Source of the DNA: a virus
Lineage: Duplodnaviria; Caudoviricetes
DNA: 64,000 bases
Virus record (IMG/VR): IMGVR_UViG_3300020048_000104
Coordinates: 9,084 to 73,083 of that record
Direction: 5' to 3' (one strand)
Shown: in pieces, positions 33,112 to 62,104 of the stretch
How positions within the stretch are numbered: the first letter of the stretch is position 1
Layout: every line of letters starts with the position of its first letter
Program-made: the position numbers and the translations under genes
The notes under the pieces: generated by a model
Seen by the model: the letters and a program-made list of their open reading frames with translations, nothing else
What the model was told of the DNA's origin: nothing
Databases searched by the model: none

Positions 33112-33150
33112 AAAAAAAAGAGATGCGTTAATAGCATCTCTTTTTATTTT
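33112..33150. terminator. Bidirectional rho-independent terminator between the convergent gene blocks
   Basis: AAAAAGAGATGC-gttaata-GCATCTCTTTTT perfect 12-bp stem flanked by A and T tracts. Confidence 0.85.
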
Positions 33151-34831
33151 ATAAACTAATAGCTTTTATAACATTAGGAAATTCATTTCTGAATAACTCT
33201 AATATATTTAATGCTATTTCTCTATGTTCTAGTTGTGTATGTTCATCACATCTAATTTGAAAGTAATGAATCCATGATCGTAAACTTCCTTTCATATACA
33301 AAGTCGTACCTACTGTTAATGGTAATACCATTCTAGCACATTCTTTAGCAACTCCATTAGCAAGTAAATTATCATATAATCTTTGTCCTTCTGCTATATG
33401 GTTTTTTACCATTTTACTAGCACTAACATTATGAATAGTAGGATTAAATACTTCCATGCTAGATTGTCTATTTGTTGCACCAGCTCTTCTTAATTCAACT
33501 AATTCGAAATCTTGTACTTCAGAATACCTTTGTGAATTATGTACAATTATACCATTAGCTACATAATTATGATTTTCATTATAAATTTCTAAATCGTAAG
33601 TTTCTATTTCTCCAACATACTCGATTGATTCTATTATCTGCCACTCCACAGTTAAAGTATTACCTTTACTTTTCATTCTCCATTTTTTAGGATCTCCTGC
33701 GATATTATGTTTTTCATTGTGACATTTTTTACAAAGAACTTGTATATTATTCTTATCATAAGCTAATGAAATATCTTCAAAAACAGGTATGATGTGATCT
33801 AGTTCTAATTTTTCATTAGTTTGACAATTTTTACATTTATAATTAGACTCTATTAATTTTTCAGCTCTTATGGTATTACACCAATCTGCTATTTTCAATC
33901 TTTCTGTTCTACAACTACCTCCTTTGTATAAATTACTTTCACTACCTTTTTTAGCACTTTTTCTCATTTTTTCAATTGTTTCTATACTATGAGGTTTATT
34001 TTTATATCCGAATTTATTTTTATTCCATACCTCTGTGTATTGAGATACTTCTTTTTTAGTAAACCCTATATTATGTAATTTTAACCATTTTCTTATAGTA
34101 TGATAACTAACATTAGCACTATCAGCTATTCCTTGTACCCCAGTTTTATTTTTAATAACTATTGCTTTTTGAGCAATAAGCCATTCTTTAGATTGATGTA
34201 AAGGAATACCATTAGTGGCAATTATACCTTTTTTAGACATTGTTATTTTAGTACCATGTGTTTCTAAACCTATTATGTCTTCTAAAGAGTAAAATCCGTT
34301 TTTTGTTAAAAATTTATGTTCTTTAGTACATACTATTTCTTTTCCTCCAGATGTTATAATTTTAAAACAAGGCTTTATTCCTGTTTTAAACACCTCTTTA
34401 ATTCTTGACGTAGTAAATTTTTCACCATCATAAAATCTAACTAAAGGTAATCCATTATTTTTAGTATGATTATTAGGTTTTGATTGAAGATTATACAAAT
34501 GGCTTATTTTTCTTTTATACGTTGCTCCACTAGGTAATTTTAAAGTTATCATACTATCACCAGCTATACAAAATTCCTGAAATGAAAATGAACGATGTCT
34601 TAATATCTGTGCAGCAATAGCTCTACTTGTTTTAATTTCAACAGTAATATCTACCATTTCAAAAGGACTCCAATGCTTGTGTTTAATTAAATAATTTAAC
34701 AGTCTATCAGCTGTTTCCATATTTAATTGATTCTCAGGATTACTAACTCTAGCTGTATAAACAACTAATTCTTCAGGTGTAGACACTCCTTCTATAAGAG
34801 GCTGTGTCATTGAAATTATTTTTGTTTCCAT
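33149..34831 (-). CDS. thyX: Flavin-dependent thymidylate synthase ThyX, intein-containing
   Basis: HWSPFE, RHRSFSFQEF|SQRY ThyX motif split by an intein, KECARMVLP, LRSWIHY; about 215 aa after splicing. Confidence 0.93.
   Translation of the reverse strand: METKIISMTQPLIEGVSTPEELVVYTARVSNPENQLNMETADRLLNYLIKHKHWSPFEMVDITVEIKTSRAIAAQILRHRSFSFQEFCIAGDSMITLKLPSGATYKRKISHLYNLQSKPNNHTKNNGLPLVRFYDGEKFTTSRIKEVFKTGIKPCFKIITSGGKEIVCTKEHKFLTKNGFYSLEDIIGLETHGTKITMSKKGIIATNGIPLHQSKEWLIAQKAIVIKNKTGVQGIADSANVSYHTIRKWLKLHNIGFTKKEVSQYTEVWNKNKFGYKNKPHSIETIEKMRKSAKKGSESNLYKGGSCRTERLKIADWCNTIRAEKLIESNYKCKNCQTNEKLELDHIIPVFEDISLAYDKNNIQVLCKKCHNEKHNIAGDPKKWRMKSKGNTLTVEWQIIESIEYVGEIETYDLEIYNENHNYVANGIIVHNSQRYSEVQDFELVELRRAGATNRQSSMEVFNPTIHNVSASKMVKNHIAEGQRLYDNLLANGVAKECARMVLPLTVGTTLYMKGSLRSWIHYFQIRCDEHTQLEHREIALNILELFRNEFPNVIKAISL
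33536..34570 (-). mobile_element. Intein with HNH endonuclease in thyX
   Basis: Starts CIAGDSMITL and ends HNYVANGIIVHN followed by Ser; internal CKNC...LELDHIIP...NIQVLCKKCHNEKH; 345 aa. Confidence 0.92.
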
Positions 34832-54947: not shown

Positions 54948-55694
54948 TTAAAATAGTGTTAATTGATTATCTACTACGTTTCTAATTTCCTTATTAGCTT
55001 GTCTTATATAATAGTCGTAATCAACATGATAATCATCCTTTTCTTCATATTTATTAAATATGATAACAGGTACACCTTCATTAATTATTGATTGACGACC
55101 ATCATTGAAATGCTTGATAAACTTATGTCCTTTTTTAGAAATGTAGTATCTTACATTTTTCTGTTGTTTAACAGGAATTATACCTCCCATAAGGTATTCG
55201 TATGTTACTCCATAACTTGCAGAATTGAATTTTTGACGACCACAGAAATCATAGATGTTTTTATGATTCATGATAGTTTGCTCAACAGGAACATCGTTAA
55301 TGAAATACTCAGATAATGCAATACGTATTACTTTGAAACTATTATCCTTATGGTAATCCTTATCTAATTCAAAAGCACCTTTGTATTTAACTTTTCCATT
55401 AGTATAAATTCCGATATAATTATTGACATCTCGTATTACCATTTTAGAATATTCGACATATTCAAGATTAAGTCTTGTAAGTTTTTCCCACATAGCACAA
55501 ATCTTATAATATTTATCTAAATCAGTTCTGCGTATTTTCATAGTAAAGCCATCTGTATTTGCTTGTAACATGATAGAATCAGGAAATGATAATACTAATT
55601 TCTCACACAACATAGATAATGTTAACTGACCAGTTAACGTAGTCTGCATTGTATAAAGAGGATCATATAAAAAAGAATGTTCATCATTGGATTT
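54948..55694 (-). CDS. polB: Family B DNA polymerase, exon 2
   Basis: Begins KSNDEHSFLYDP; motif C QANTDG, RDVNNY and VKYKGAF. Confidence 0.9.
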   Translation of the reverse strand, partial: KSNDEHSFLYDPLYTMQTTLTGQLTLSMLCEKLVLSFPDSIMLQANTDGFTMKIRRTDLDKYYKICAMWEKLTRLNLEYVEYSKMVIRDVNNYIGIYTNGKVKYKGAFELDKDYHKDNSFKVIRIALSEYFINDVPVEQTIMNHKNIYDFCGRQKFNSASYGVTYEYLMGGIIPVKQQKNVRYYISKKGHKFIKHFNDGRQSIINEGVPVIIFNKYEEKDDYHVDYDYYIRQANKEIRNVVDNQLTLF

Positions 55695-55925
55695 CAGTTG
55701 TGTTATCATAAGGCTCTTTATCCTTATTTCTGTATATTACTATACAGCTCAGACTATATCATCACCCTTAATTAAAAGGGGTAAGGCGCTCGTGTTACCA
55801 TTACTTTCCTCAACATTACTTGTTTGGAATCGGGTATTAGTCGTTGAACCTTCAAGAATATTACTATTCAAGATTGGCTGCTGATTGCCCTCACGGACTG
55901 TGATAGGGTTTCCCAGCAATTCACC

Positions 55926-56738
55926 TCATTTCTTATCATCAATTACTTGATGTAAGGGCTTAATTGAAAAATATAAATTTTTATATGGTTTGCCGTAATT
56001 ACATGATTTATTGATATTTACAGATTGTAGTAATTTTACAGGTTTACCCATTCGATCACCTTGAAATCTACTTTTTATAGGTAGGTTGTTTTTTGATGTT
56101 AACGACCATTCTTCAAGATCTTTAGCACAATTCCATTTACCTAAAAAATTATAATTAATATCATATACATATATTTCTGGACAAATTAGATTTCTTCTAT
56201 TTTCATTATTTTGTTTTCTTGCTTTTATTGACTTTTCAGTAATTGTTTTAGTAATACCTTTTAAATATGAATAATCTATTACAGAGCCATCTTTACCTTT
56301 ATTCCAAGGAGTATGACCTTTGTGAAAATTACTAACTATTTCCCCAGAAGCATAACGTTTTTTCATTGTAGCTCTACGTTTATCTATAGTTACTCTATCG
56401 GTAGATGGTACATTTGTTGCTTTTGGGTTTATATTATATCCAATTTTCATATTATGAGATTGGTAATAATCCATCCAATATTGTTCTTTACTCAAACATT
56501 CTTCTTTTTCACAAATTTCTAATATTTCAAAAGAAAAATTGTCTTCTCCGTATTTATTAAAAGACGACTGTAAGTAAGGATTTTTATGTTTGTTAATTCT
56601 TAACATTGCTTGATGATGCCACATACGTTTTAATAAAGTTACAGAAGCACTTCCGATGTATTTTTTATTATTTACTAAATTTTCAATTTTATAAACTCCT
56701 TTGAGTTTTAATTTTTCAAGATCACAATTTAATTTCAT
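55926..56738 (-). CDS. Intron-encoded GIY-YIG endonuclease (I-TevI-like)
   Basis: GVYKIENLVNNKKYIGSA...R...H...L...H.N..LQ.SFNKYG; located 5' of the intron core (P1 loop region). Confidence 0.88.
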   Translation of the reverse strand: MKLNCDLEKLKLKGVYKIENLVNNKKYIGSASVTLLKRMWHHQAMLRINKHKNPYLQSSFNKYGEDNFSFEILEICEKEECLSKEQYWMDYYQSHNMKIGYNINPKATNVPSTDRVTIDKRRATMKKRYASGEIVSNFHKGHTPWNKGKDGSVIDYSYLKGITKTITEKSIKARKQNNENRRNLICPEIYVYDINYNFLGKWNCAKDLEEWSLTSKNNLPIKSRFQGDRMGKPVKLLQSVNINKSCNYGKPYKNLYFSIKPLHQVIDDKK

Positions 56739-56754
56739 AGACTAAAGTTTTTTA

Positions 56755-56762
56755 CAAACTTA
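56755..56762 (-). promoter_or_regulatory. Possible -7 promoter (TAAGTTTG) for the intron endonuclease
   Basis: TAnnTTTG match ending 16 nt upstream of the ATG at 56738, inside the intron. Confidence 0.35.
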
Positions 56763-56805
56763 CACTTAATTCTTTATATAATTTTATTTTTTTCAATTTT
56801 TATCA

Positions 56806-57942
56806 ACCGTACACACTATTTAAGGAAAGCTTATACCCATCTGAAAGAATCATATCTCCTGCTTTTTTAGCTATCATTCTCATTTGTAGTATTTCTTTAT
56901 AAATATTACAAAACTCAATTCCTAATTGAGCAGGATATAAATTATTTTCTACACCTATACTAGGGTACATTGATCCTACGTCAGCATCTATGATTATCCA
57001 TTCATCATCTGATGCATACACACCTGCTTTAATACATCCATGTATTCCTCCTGTACCAAAATCATACTTGAATCCTTTGAATACAACAGATTCGTTAATA
57101 GATCCTTTTGTTTCTTTGATTGTTTTGCTTTTTAAAGTATCTAGTAATTTATTGAACTCTGGTGTTTTGAATTTAACATAATCAAATATACAATCCTTTA
57201 AAGCTATACTATCACGCTTAGTTCTTAATTGTCTAACTTCACGAGGATCTAATCCTGTTTTATCACAATACAATTTAAGCATAAGTGATTCACCTATTTT
57301 ACTATCAGGATAATTTATACAAGGTAATTTATACTTTGCCATCAAACCTTTACGTAACTCTATTTTACCTTTAGATAATTTAAAGAACTCATAAGTAGAA
57401 TATACATCATTAGCATTATATGCAAGAATATCTTTCAACATACTTTCAGATATTTTCTTTGTGGTATGAGGAATATCCATATCTTGTACATTATGATAAT
57501 TCATTGCAATCTGTAAAGATTTTAAGCTGGTAGAACGTGCTGCATTATTGTAATGATAGATTCTAAATAAGTCTAATTGAGGTATCTTAACATCTTTAGA
57601 CTTGATTCCAAAACCTCCTCCAAATCGAGAATTATTCTGCTCACTAATTATAGACTGAGCTTTAGCATAAATATCATCAATAATGTCTTTAGCTTCCATA
57701 CCACTATTCAATTGCCATTTCCAATCCTCATAATTTATCATTATAAAATGTATAATAGGGTAATCAAATGACACGTTATTGAAGCCAATTTGCCCTGTAC
57801 ATTTATTTAGATGATTCATTAAGTCATCTAACTGATTCAAGTTAGGATGAATGACATATTGATATAATTCTTCTGTTCTGATGTCTAAAGCAGTATATGT
57901 AAAAGTACCTGCTAAAGTTTCAATATCGAAAACAACCTTCAT
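56806..57942 (-). CDS. polB: Family B DNA polymerase, exon 1 (3'-5' exonuclease plus motifs A/B)
   Basis: FDIET, GFNNVSFDYP, YNANDV, motif A DADVGSMYP and motif B KLSLNSVYG; about 627 aa after splicing. Confidence 0.9.
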
Positions 57943-58800: not shown

Positions 58801-59655
58801 TTATTTCTTTTTAGTTGGTACTAGACACTTCCAACCTAGAGAATTTATTTCAATATTCCAATTATATCTTTCATTTAACCAAAAGCTATCTTTCGTACTA
58901 GGTTCAGCCTTATGCTTTATAATATACACATTATCTAATAATACACCAACTTCGTCGTATACAACTCTACTTAAATCAACACTACCATCATCTTGTTTAA
59001 GATATTTAGATACAATTGGTAATTGCTCTTTAGTACATTCTCCAAACATTGCATCAACTTCTTCTTGTGTCAGCTCAATATAATATTCTAATGGATTTCT
59101 AGCACCATATCTTTCTAAGTTCATTTTCCATGCAGAACAAGCTACTGAATGTATTTCTTTTAATCCTGCTCTACTTAATCTTTGTGTTTCCATAATTTTA
59201 TTTTTTTCTTTTTTAACTATTTCAGCCCATTTACCCCTGTAATAGATATCAGGTACCATACAAGGATTATTAGGAATTTCACCATATGCCATTATATTAC
59301 TAATTCCATAGCTACTTGGTTTACCAGTCAATTCTATTTCACAACCTGTATGTATTGATTTAATAACTGTGCCAATAGGATAATGTTTTTCTGCATAAGC
59401 TAATCTACCCTCATTAGTGGTCATATCAAACTCTTCTTCAGGTAATTCAATGATTTCTGCGTTATAAGCATTAACCTTATTTAAAGAATAACTAAGAAAC
59501 TCACCATTAATTACACCATAATAAATACAAGTATCACCTTCATCTTCACACAGTTGCCCCCAAGACCCTTTGGTGTCCACACCTTGTGAGTTCCAATATT
59601 CAATTACTTTTTTACCGTGCTCTATATTAAGCACTTTAATTACTTGATTTTTCAT
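58801..59655 (-). CDS. Mosaic hypothetical protein
   Basis: 284 aa made of short modules ending in AEII/AEIV. Confidence 0.65.
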   Translation of the reverse strand: MKNQVIKVLNIEHGKKVIEYWNSQGVDTKGSWGQLCEDEGDTCIYYGVINGEFLSYSLNKVNAYNAEIIELPEEEFDMTTNEGRLAYAEKHYPIGTVIKSIHTGCEIELTGKPSSYGISNIMAYGEIPNNPCMVPDIYYRGKWAEIVKKEKNKIMETQRLSRAGLKEIHSVACSAWKMNLERYGARNPLEYYIELTQEEVDAMFGECTKEQLPIVSKYLKQDDGSVDLSRVVYDEVGVLLDNVYIIKHKAEPSTKDSFWLNERYNWNIEINSLGWKCLVPTKKK

Positions 59656-59681
59656 AGCTTTTGTATTACATTGTATAAAAA

Positions 59682-59697
59682 TGCTGTCTTTCCAGCA
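59682..59697 (-). other. Small hairpin UGCUG-GAAAGA-CAGCA in the 5' leader of the 284-aa gene
   Basis: Perfect 5-bp stem with GAAAGA loop, about 27 nt upstream of the ATG. Confidence 0.35.
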
Positions 59698-59994
59698 GTC
59701 ACCTTACAAAATACTCCACCAATGGACACCTGTTGTACCTCTAAGGCTGATAGAACTATCGACTGTTCTGTACTATAAGGGTTTCTGGAATCGAACCAGT
59801 TTCGTAAACGGATAAGGTATTAACTTTATCCGTTTATATCAATTCTAAATGGATCGCTACTCCTAGATTTTAAATATTTATGGTTTTACGCAATTTATTA
59901 GAATTGATAAGTCATTACTATAAGGATCGTTACTCCAAAGGATGTTCATCGAATAACATTTATTTTTAGTTTAACGCAATTTAATAGTAACTAG

Positions 59995-60074
59995 CAGTCA
60001 TGACAAGATTCAAACTTGTGTGTGCACATATCATCTATGTATATGTTACAGCCTAATCACTCAGCCACATGACT
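59995..60074 (-). ncRNA. tRNA-like element (non-canonical)
   Basis: Acceptor AGUCAUG/CAUGACU, D arm GCU-GAGUGAUUA-GGC and T arm ACAAG-UUUGAAU-CUUGU; anticodon arm elongated with a 9-nt loop; no CCA. Confidence 0.55.
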
Positions 60075-60079
60075 ATAAA

Positions 60080-60179
60080 TAAATATGTTTGTTTATAAGT
60101 TCTTCGCATATATCTTGCGTAAACAACCTGGAATTAACTAACGTACGACTTCCAGAACTTTCTTCGTACTACATATTTA
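60080..60179. ncRNA. Compact multi-helix, double-pseudoknot-like element
   Basis: Six complementary pairs: 60080-88/60171-79, 60089-95/60120-26, 60105-08/60116-19, 60097-103/60154-60, 60128-33/60150-55 and 60143-48/60164-69. Confidence 0.5.
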
Positions 60180-60186
60180 AGTTTTT

Positions 60187-60233
60187 GAAGCTAGGACTTG
60201 AACCTAGATGAGAGCACTTGTAACCTCTACTTC
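60187..60233 (-). ncRNA. Minimal tRNA-like (T-loop) element
   Basis: GAAG/CUUC closing stem, AGAG..CUCU hairpin and canonical T arm CUAGG-UUCAAGU-CCUAG. Confidence 0.4.
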
Positions 60234-60243
60234 GTCATAATTT

Positions 60244-60269
60244 TAAATAAAAACAGGAAGCAACCTGTT
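60244..60269 (-). terminator. Probable intrinsic terminator within the non-coding region
   Basis: AACAGG-UUGCUU-CCUGUU followed by UUUAUUU. Confidence 0.5.
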
Positions 60270-60612
60270 CATTCAGATTGTGTTACATTTCGCTGACCTC
60301 TAGTGCGTAACACTTCTTTTTGTTGTGAGGTAACCTAATCACCCATGCCTTTGGGTCAATCTGTTTTGTACATATTTCCCTTTAGTACTTAGGTCCAGCC
60401 CTCATTTATCTGGTGCATTCAATGTATATTTCAACATAAGGGAAGAACAATAATAAATCCCTGTACTCTCAGTAAGTAATACACAATGGACTTTAACCAT
60501 TTTTTGCTGATGTAAACATCTGTGTATCTAACTCCTAAACAACTACACTCTGAATGTGTATCAATAGCGGTGTCACAGACTATTTAGTTTATTCATTAGC
60601 AGGGAAATGTTT

Positions 60613-61032
60613 TTAAATAATTGTATAATCCATGTGACAACTACTCAAATCATCGTAAAAATTAAAACTTATAGAAGTTTTTGTATAATTAGGAAAATCA
60701 TAAGTTAATGATAACAAGTCTAAATTCTTTTGACTTGTTGGAGTTACTACTATTTCATCAGAATAATTACAATTTATAGCTACTGAATACCAAGTATGAT
60801 AGTCTAATTCATAGAAATGAATACCATAATCATCTTCAGAATCTTTTAATAATACATTTCTATATTCTTCAGTATTAACAGTAGATTTTATTCTGATGTC
60901 ATTATACTTAACTAATTCTTCTAATGCTTTATTATAAAATTCTACAGCTAAATCTTCACTAGAAAATACATCTATTTGAGGATCACTATAACCCTCTCCA
61001 TTGGTTACTTGTACTATTAAATATTTCTTCAT
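60613..61032 (-). CDS. Hypothetical protein
   Basis: 139 aa; ATGA-coupled. Confidence 0.6.
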   Translation of the reverse strand: MKKYLIVQVTNGEGYSDPQIDVFSSEDLAVEFYNKALEELVKYNDIRIKSTVNTEEYRNVLLKDSEDDYGIHFYELDYHTWYSVAINCNYSDEIVVTPTSQKNLDLLSLTYDFPNYTKTSISFNFYDDLSSCHMDYTII

Positions 61033-61235
61033 TGTCCTAATTCTTCTAGTTTAGTTAAATAATAATCATACCATCTGTTAAAATGTTCTTGAATATGTTC
61101 TTTGTATATAAAACACTCTTGTGTTTCGTATTCATACATTTCAGAAGAATCAATAATATCTAATTCTAATTGTGTACGATCATGAGCTAATTCACAAGCT
61201 ACCTCAATTTTATTAATTCTTAATGTTTCACTCAT
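61029..61235 (-). CDS. Hypothetical protein
   Basis: 68 aa; ATGA-coupled. Confidence 0.55.
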   Translation of the reverse strand: MSETLRINKIEVACELAHDRTQLELDIIDSSEMYEYETQECFIYKEHIQEHFNRWYDYYLTKLEELGQ

Positions 61236-62104
61236 AGAATAATAGAATTACAAAAAGCTAATGATTTTTGATTCATGTCATATCCACTACCACTAATTAA
61301 CGATTCAATTCTACCATTATCTCTACGAGGAACAGAAATAGAATGAGTTGTGTAAGATGTTACTCCAGAATGCAAACCCCAAAGATTATTACCCTTATCA
61401 TTCATTTCTTTTTCTAAATGTTCATACAATGCTTCCATTGAGTTTAATGATCTAGTAGACTTTTCTTTTGTTAATTCAGGAGTATGTAATTTATCAAATC
61501 CTAATAAATTAAGAACTAACTTAGATGCTAAATCTCTACTAATATCAGTAGATTGGAATCTTTTATATAATTCTATTTGCCTCATAGACTCAGCTAATGC
61601 ATTCTCTATAATAGAAGGAATAGTTAGTATTCTTTCTTTTAAAGATGATGAATGCATAAACTTTGTAGAAGATGCTTTATAGAACTTATAAAATTGATTT
61701 GAACAACTTAATGTTAAATCTCCAATACCTATTGATAATCCTGATGAACTATCATTAGAGTCAAGAATAGTGATGTATTTTTCAACATCATCTTTACCTA
61801 CTTTCGAAAGTCCTTCTATTTTAAGTTGTAAATAAATCTTACGACCATCATTAATAGAACCTCCTTTTTGTACACTTACTTTACCATTAAAAGATTCTAT
61901 TCCTTGTAACACTAATTCTACTAAATCTCTGTTTTGAGATACTGTATATCCTTCTTTAACAGTATTTATGACATTACCTGATTTACTATTAAGTAATCCG
62001 TAATAAGGACTTTTTACCATAGATACACCTGTATCGGCATACAATGGTAACTTTTCAATGGTAAAGTCCAAACCATTATTTACTAAAATTTCATCTACAG
62101 TCAT
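61232..62104 (-). CDS. DUF932-family phage/plasmid protein
   Basis: GLDFTIEKLPL, GYTVSQN, KGGSINDGRKIY, LSCSNQF and LWGLHSGVTSY. Confidence 0.75.
   Translation of the reverse strand: MTVDEILVNNGLDFTIEKLPLYADTGVSMVKSPYYGLLNSKSGNVINTVKEGYTVSQNRDLVELVLQGIESFNGKVSVQKGGSINDGRKIYLQLKIEGLSKVGKDDVEKYITILDSNDSSSGLSIGIGDLTLSCSNQFYKFYKASSTKFMHSSSLKERILTIPSIIENALAESMRQIELYKRFQSTDISRDLASKLVLNLLGFDKLHTPELTKEKSTRSLNSMEALYEHLEKEMNDKGNNLWGLHSGVTSYTTHSISVPRRDNGRIESLISGSGYDMNQKSLAFCNSIIL

Follow-up and report, generated by a model that had tools for sequence, protein, structure and literature searches.

The 64,000-nt stretch of phage DNA analysed here (the window; bases 9084–73083 of the 73-kb linear IMG/VR virus record IMGVR_UViG_3300020048_000104, CheckV completeness 55%) contains, at 59656–60612, a gap between genes that we read as a minus-strand array of structured RNAs, probably co-transcribed with the flanking genes and matured at tRNA-like ends. 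We put the probability of this reading at roughly 0.68; its basis is sequence conservation, structure-preserving variation, strand and synteny. An earlier reading of the same DNA (the original prediction) had proposed a minus-strand cluster of structured RNAs, and this is borne out by recurrent modules, near-invariant junctions, varying closed hairpins and compensatory changes, but not by folding stability or by two of the tRNA-like modules. The source is a putative aquatic crAss-like phage, judged by its giant virion proteins and replication genes, and its genome has a GC content of approximately 30%.

The gap extends from a stop codon at 60613 to an ATG at 59655. It had been described as free of open reading frames (ORFs) of 60 aa or more, and its longest ORF is indeed 53 aa; reassigning TAA, TAG or TGA singly opened no frame across it. 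The helices CCCUG/CAGGG (60604–60600 with 60463–60459), UUCCCUU/AAGGGAA and CAGAUUG/CAAUCUG named in the original prediction are present, a pseudoknot-capable element was found at 60083–60178 (a double pseudoknot had been part of the prediction), and the T-loops and terminator-like hairpins read on the minus strand, as claimed for the T-loops and a terminator. The features are listed below; z-scores compare RNAfold stability with that of dinucleotide shuffles.

60452–60616, minus strand: M1, a multi-helix RNA that directly follows the upstream stop codon
60365–60451, minus strand: M2 (the 'core'), UUCCCUU/AAGGGAA closing two small hairpins
60245–60364, minus strand: M4, a CAGAUUG/CAAUCUG helix with a variable interior and an end hairpin
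60188–60236, minus strand: mini tRNA-like B, one hairpin and the T arm CUAGG-UUCAAGU-CCUAG (60207–60191)
60083–60178, minus strand: pseudoknot element, with helix S1 (GUACGA/UCGUAC, 60169–60164 with 60148–60143)
59995–60074, minus strand: TL, a tRNA-like gene with a 7-bp acceptor stem, a T arm and a degenerate D arm
59915–59994, minus strand: tandem repeat copy a, stem UUACUAU/AUAGUAA (59990–59984 with 59921–59915; z −1.78)
59837–59914, minus strand: tandem repeat copy b, perfect 12-bp stem UAUCAAUUCUAA/UUAGAAUUGAUA (59909–59898 with 59848–59837; z −2.86)
59785–59836, minus strand: a 12-bp hairpin (59836–59805; inverted repeat I2, z −5.85) and an orphan T arm, CUGG-UUCGAUU-CCAG (59799–59785)
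59698–59784, minus strand: array tail, with a possible CCUUAUA/UGUAAGG closure seen in the sequence only (z −0.71)
59682–59697, minus strand: final hairpin, UGCUG-GAAAGA-CAGCA and a U run, 27 nt before the ATG of the gene for a 284-aa protein
60207–60191, 60019–60003 and 59799–59785, minus strand: T arms returned by the T-arm scan

Loci for comparison were fetched via an alignment of the 284-aa protein (A1) and via DNA patterns; the genome of the window is designated G000. M1 was found in three phage lineages besides that of the window. Its conserved blocks (AUUUCCCUGCUAAUGAAUAAAC, AUACACAUUCAGAGUGUAGUUGUUUAGGRGUUAGAU and AUUACUUACUGAGAGUACAGGGAUUUAUUA) are 97–100% identical to the window in G011, G013, G014 and G015, the last of which is cut by a contig end. 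The blocks form P1 (CCCUG/CAGGG), P2 (CUAAU-GAA-UAAAC with GUUUA-GGA-GUUAG, a 5+5-bp helix with a GAA/GGA internal loop) and P3 (ACAC/GUGU), and are accompanied by two variable closed hairpins, V1 (25, 59, 62 or 68 nt) and V2 (45 or 105 nt). The sequences of V1 and V2 are unrelated between lineages, yet V1 is a closed stem-loop in 5/5 copies and V2 closes end to end in 4/4, with five of the six pairs of its closing stem changed on both sides in the window copy. A fold model comprising P1, P2, P3 and the V2 stem was satisfied by pairing in 100% of cells (29–48% in slid controls). A covariance model of M1 (R1) scored the window copy at 170 bits and those in G011, G013 and G014 at 207–211 bits, and returned no further M1 copies from 606 kb of comparison sequence. 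Hidden coding was rejected for M1, as two frames of the conserved blocks contain stops and the differences in V1 length break the frame.

As the junctions of M1 are invariant while closed hairpins have been freely replaced, recent transfer alone is insufficient to account for it, and we argue for a folded RNA. This bears on the best-surviving alternative, which is that the gap is a decaying tRNA island in a small-genome lineage that no longer needs its tRNA block, consisting of pseudogene tRNA pieces and of spacer DNA kept by hitch-hiking or recent recombination and devoid of RNA function. Transfer of dead DNA cannot yield blocks that are 97–100% identical around wholly replaced hairpins, and we consider decay unlikely.

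M2 is 97.7% identical to its counterpart in G001 over 87 nt, and 99.1% identical to that in G011 over 116 nt that include the M1 3′ block. G001 (121 kb) otherwise has in common with G000 only the 284-aa gene and two short coding matches, or three short coding high-scoring segment pairs besides the non-coding RNA piece, and G011 (74 kb) has nothing but non-coding RNA pieces and no coding segment pair. With M2 known in three near-identical copies, constraint and recent exchange are inseparable, and the near-identity could reflect recent transfer, a point in favour of decay. M4 shares with G001 its closing helix, ACNCAAAGGCAUG and the end hairpin, and the interiors differ. The end hairpin of M4 (GAACAGG-UUGCUU-CCUGUUU, 60270–60251) is followed by a U run and is terminator-like. 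A further domain, M3, follows M2 in G001 and G011, is present in two copies in G013 and includes one compensated pair (GAGG/CCUC versus GAAG/CUUC). In whole-record comparison G001 is akin to G014, and G011 to G013. As the related phages G001 and G014 have different module sets between homologous flanks at the same locus, the modules behave as exchangeable cassettes.

For the second part of the array the informative comparison is with G002 (88.9 kb), a true syntenic relative of G000 with 64–78% nucleotide identity in whole-record comparison. The pseudoknot element is syntenic and 87–93% identical in the two genomes, compared with 64–78% for coding DNA, and it is conserved above every coding segment between them, which again counts against decay. 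The S1 loop, CUGGAA, pairs with UUCCAG (60155–60150 with 60133–60128), and UUGUUUA/UAAACAA (60126–60120 with 60095–60089) encloses a variable hairpin. All 19 modelled pairs are kept in G002 (19/19), two of them through changes on both sides; S1 has changed from GUACGA/UCGUAC to GUAAGG/CCUUAC, and a larger hairpin takes the place of the inner one. The shuffle control for this element is uninformative with two sequences (105/500). The pseudoknot element and TL are in the same order in G002, between a homologue of the 139-aa gene and the 109-aa and polymerase genes, with other ORFs interspersed.

TL has an orthologue in G002 (L008:9531–9669), and its acceptor and T stems change compensatorily between the two genomes. 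It belongs to a family with the consensus AGUCAGGUGGCGGAAUUGGUAGACGC ... ACAGGUUCGAAUCCUGUCCUGACU, a tRNA-Leu-like scaffold, that has members in G001, G002, G011 and G014, with six or more in G013. Its members are 80–199 nt long and their middles form no decoding anticodon arm. Among ten members, 98.3% of acceptor-stem and T-stem cells pair and 9/12 pairs change on both sides, levels reached in 0/500 shuffles (slid controls 30–45%), with the limit that members were selected by a script for pairing, so that the percentage paired is partly circular and only the comparison of the window with G002 is unbiased. The tandem repeats consist of 86-nt units (direct repeat D1, 75% identity, spacing 86), each of which forms a long stem. 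Three of the seven aligned stem pairs differ on both sides between copies a and b (alignment A9). The conserved loop sequences of copy a are AAAUUGCGU and GGAGUAACGAUCC, and the stem of copy b is the inverted repeat I5, which is 100% complementary. Homologous regions and covariation had been put forward in the original prediction as a means of checking it. When these were sought, the TL acceptor and T stems were found to covary and compensated changes were found in pseudoknot S1 and the tandem-repeat stem; the maintenance of all three sets of stems is at odds with decay.

The sequence UUAUAGU(A/C)A occurs three times on the minus strand of the window (59768–59781, 59915–59924 and 60070–60083). 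One copy is located where TL begins (5′ end), the sequence there, AGUCAUGACU, being perfectly palindromic, and tRNA-like genes in relatives are likewise preceded by UAUAG or a U run.

Several observations do fit a decaying island. No canonical tRNA was detected in the window, either by ARAGORN at default settings or by Rfam at gathering thresholds, which returned no match of any kind in the 64 kb. In TL the D arm is degenerate and the anticodon loop has 9 nt. The original prediction had counted three tRNA-like modules bearing T-loops; a scan for a G-C-closed stem with a UUCRANY-type loop recovered three minus-strand T arms in the gap, and two of the three are without a proper acceptor stem. 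Mini tRNA-like B has an acceptor stem of only 4 bp in the window, and the T arm at 59799–59785 is without an acceptor partner. Over 34 nt, mini tRNA-like B has 85% identity with its copies in G011 and G013, and by our reading the G011 copy could form a 7-bp acceptor stem with two G-U pairs. The T-arm motifs are nevertheless concentrated in the gap, where three of the four in the whole 73-kb genome (both strands) are located, all on the minus strand, against an expectation of 0.026 in 957 nt by our own arithmetic. The fourth, at 61707 inside the DUF932 gene, is probably due to chance, as is probably the tRNA-Pro(TGG) that ARAGORN called at a 90% threshold at 61684–61758 (minus strand) within the DUF932 coding sequence.

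Folding stability also leaves room for decay. The domains had been described as independently folding, with structure better than shuffled controls as the proposed test, and most of them failed it, being no more stable than dinucleotide shuffles (z −0.9 for M1, 0.0 to +0.9 for the core, −0.3 for the pseudoknot element, −0.1 for TL and −0.5 for the whole of 60245–60612). Only simple hairpins, the tandem-repeat stems and 60274–60363 (z −2.05) exceeded shuffles. The whole region had z-scores of −2.6 (minus strand) and −3.0 (plus strand) with 20 shuffles, and with such similar values folding energy cannot choose the strand. Stability fails as a criterion for most domains; the case for structured RNAs rests on comparison with other phages.

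The following points weigh against an array of structured RNAs. None of M1, M2, the pseudoknot element and TL exceeds shuffles in stability, and P1–P3 of M1 and all of M2 are invariant and so carry no covariation signal. Independent sequences are few: M1 is known from three or four lineages, M2 from three copies, and M4 and the pseudoknot element from two copies each. The TL family is affected by the selection described above. Mini tRNA-like B and the orphan T arm look degenerate in the window. Finally, one terminator lies midway through the array, and a search of the minus strand at 59000–61200 found no promoter motif of the Bacteroidota type (TAnnTTTG); together these leave transcription of the second half unexplained.

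If the region acted at the DNA level, for instance as an origin of replication, a site for packaging or recombination, or the target of a homing endonuclease, the mosaic near-identity of modules that are exchanged between unrelated phages would be accounted for; we rate this reading somewhat lower than decay. The region lies within a block of replication genes and contains direct and inverted repeats, both strands fold about equally well, and the genome is rich in homing endonucleases (GIY-YIG in a split polymerase gene, HNH in thymidylate synthase). However, no endonuclease gene is located inside or adjoining the array, and the T-loop motifs and tRNA cloverleaf are strand-specific RNA features. 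The covarying stems of the TL family include G-U pairs, which fit the minus strand; read from the plus strand, these positions would be A-C mismatches. Invariant junctions with variable closed hairpins between them at fixed sites are, moreover, typical of folded RNAs.

TL itself has elements of a genuine tRNA. It has a 7-bp acceptor stem (AGUCAUG/CAUGACU) and a 5-bp T stem (ACAAG-UUUGAAU-CUUGU, with a T-loop of the UUCRANY type). The original prediction had proposed a search of Rfam, and although nothing was found at gathering thresholds, permissive filters gave one borderline tRNA match: applied to 1.5 kb, and only then, they returned TL at 31.3 bits against RF00005 (cut-off 29). ARAGORN called it, as tRNA-Ile(TAT), only at the 90% threshold. 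However, 23 nt are present where the anticodon arm should be 17, and in place of a 5-bp stem and 7-nt loop with U33 and purine 37 there is a 6-bp stem (ACAUAU/AUAUGU) and a 9-nt loop, ACAUAGAUG. The D arm, GCUG-AGUGAUU-AGGC, is without the GG of G18 G19. Family members in G001, G002, G011 and G013 carry the D arm GGAAUUGGUAGACGC, which is of the tRNA-Leu type, and bacterial leucyl-tRNA synthetase does not read the anticodon. That TL and possibly other T-arm modules are unusual working tRNAs, with the remainder serving as operon leader or spacers, draws on the Rfam score, the ARAGORN call, the retained D arm and this anticodon-independent charging, but is very improbable given the aberrant anticodon arm of TL, the loops of its relatives (7–12 nt without U33 and unrelated in sequence, or inserts of 40–66 nt), the lack of an anticodon common to any family members, and 'spacers' that are conserved above the tRNA-like genes.

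Under the structured-RNA reading, the locus would be of the tRNA-island type, matching the tRNA blocks of larger relatives, with no decoding tRNA left. The first part (M1-M2-M4, approximately 370 nt) starts directly after the upstream stop codon, ends at the intrinsic-terminator-like hairpin and is built from helix-closed modules that other lake phages combine differently beside genuine tRNA genes. The second part would comprise the mini tRNA-like element, the pseudoknot element, a scaffold RNA derived from tRNA-Leu, two tandem stem-loops and an orphan T arm. The array would be transcribed by read-through from the upstream genes, and host RNase P together with enzymes that process tRNA 3′ ends may then cleave it at its tRNA-like ends, releasing stable small RNAs. 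More speculatively, the non-decoding scaffolds keep the acceptor/T-arm 'elbow' and so could engage host or defence factors that bind tRNA, and the M modules could be a structured RNA associated with tRNA islands in the manner of GOLLD and ROOL.

The nearest known parallel is offered by GOLLD and ROOL, large ornate RNAs that are associated with phage tRNA islands; assignment of the array to either family is unsupported. Both are encoded beside such islands, and in some cases a variable region contains tRNAs (bioRxiv 10.1101/2024.12.08.627333). The array resembles them in adjoining tRNA-like genes here, and tRNAs in G013 and G014, and in being made up of multi-helix RNAs of phages or prophages with invariant junctions and variable peripheral stems. 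It differs from them in that their Rfam models are not matched (E up to 10 in the window, up to 1 in the arrays of relatives), M1-M2-M4 extends for only ~370 nt and phages have reshuffled the modules. A tRNA block is common in crAss-like phages (PMC12386605). The tRNA blocks of these and other large phages represent the same type of locus, and G013 and G014 have the modules interspersed with real tRNAs of 45–57 bits. The window, in contrast, is without a canonical tRNA, anticodon arms are replaced, and the sequences between tRNAs are the best conserved.

Two better-studied groups of small RNAs offer looser parallels. RNAs C and D of T4 (species 1 and 2) are small and stable, and are encoded in the T4 tRNA cluster, co-transcribed with it and matured by tRNA-processing enzymes. 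The array RNAs would resemble them as small stable phage RNAs encoded beside tRNAs; T4 and the crAss-like phages are unrelated. The Y RNAs of bacteria (YrlA) are non-decoding and have a tRNA-like domain that mimics the acceptor, T arm and D arm. In YrlA the tRNA-like part is a single module, whereas here tRNA-like ends close the whole molecule; the array also has no Rfam match to them, and no Ro60 or Rsr gene was seen adjoining it.

Searches of known families and genomes gave few other leads. An all-Rfam scan of 59400–60900 (E up to 10) returned no GOLLD, ROOL, tmRNA, ribozyme or riboswitch model. The ROOL model matched none of G000, G001, G002, G003 and G011, and control genomes were likewise silent. 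The arrays of G011, G013 and G014 matched only tRNA in Rfam (E up to 1). The whole region had no megablast or blastn match in 50,697 cultured-phage records, and exact patterns for M1 and M2 had none in 185,579 bacterial and archaeal species genomes. Rfam 15 contains none of the modules; the catalogue of 10,006 candidate RNAs in PMC10690425 was outside the comparison. A hammerhead ribozyme was considered for M1 and rejected, as its CUAAUGA differs from the hammerhead CUGAUGA at an essential G. The loose resemblance of M3 to conserved regions of RNase P was also rejected, with no Rfam match in support, and a match at G009:22526–22554 was discarded as AT-rich coding DNA.

A bolder proposal, which we regard as possible but doubtful, is that M1-M2-M4 together with M3 and M5 represent a new class of tRNA-island RNA composed combinatorially of exchangeable helix-closed cassettes, that TL scaffolds rely on their tRNA ends for processing and stability and display idiosyncratic RNA inserts, and that the two form a tRNA-mimic toolkit directed against host factors that bind or target tRNA. 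Phage tRNA islands are known for the enigmatic large RNAs GOLLD and ROOL, and the array adds uncatalogued RNA modules from uncultured lake crAss-like phages. The exchange of modules with near-invariant junctions as cassettes between unrelated phages is unusual, as is a family of tRNA-Leu-shaped scaffolds in which the decoding arm is replaced by diverse inserts. Provided that these RNAs undergo expression and processing, the locus would offer a compact ~1-kb system for the roles of non-decoding tRNA mimics and tRNA-island RNAs during infection.

The original prediction had included a terminator. A scan of a 1.8-kb stretch found five terminator-like sites against 0.6 expected in shuffles, and two such structures in the gap, at 60270–60251 and 59697–59682, each combine a hairpin that contains GC with a U run after it on the transcribed (minus) strand. 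The second of these, the final hairpin, is either a leader hairpin of the 284-aa gene or the end or terminator of the array. Locus L009 has a hairpin, UAUUG-AAAGA-CAAUA, in the corresponding position ahead of the homologous gene, and both differences in the stem are compensated; this would place the final hairpin in the leader of the downstream gene and not in the array. The preceding array tail (59698–59784) had no match in any compared locus.

All genes flanking the array are on the minus strand, and the array is within a block of replication genes. Upstream are genes for a DUF932 protein and ORFs of 68 and 139 aa; downstream is the gene for the 284-aa protein, which has 684 metagenomic homologues, and then that for the N-terminal half of a DNA polymerase. 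Scans with single proteins found little or nothing in the way of close protein relatives.

Further features were noted in the related islands. G013, a 187-kb phage with the largest version of the array, includes at L087:2585–2656 (minus strand) a 57-bit tRNA with the anticodon loop CUCUAAA and hence the anticodon CUA of an amber suppressor; the two tRNAs adjoining it have 8-nt anticodon loops. In G011, approximately 370 nt of GC-richer, ORF-free sequence (L057:3318–3687) between tRNA-Leu-like and tRNA-Ile-like genes had no Rfam match and may be a further structured RNA of the same island.

The DNA polymerase of the window (54948–57942, minus strand) is split exactly at position 412/413 of the phrog_1252 profile, into an N-terminal half at 56803–57942 and a C-terminal half at 54948–55709, with a free-standing GIY-YIG homing endonuclease gene between them (55926–56738). 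The polymerase of G002 is apparently unsplit, in a 656-aa gene. The thymidylate synthase (560 aa; 33149–34831, minus strand) has an HNH endonuclease domain (approximately residues 213–421) between two matching stretches, and this domain is intein-like or an inserted endonuclease.

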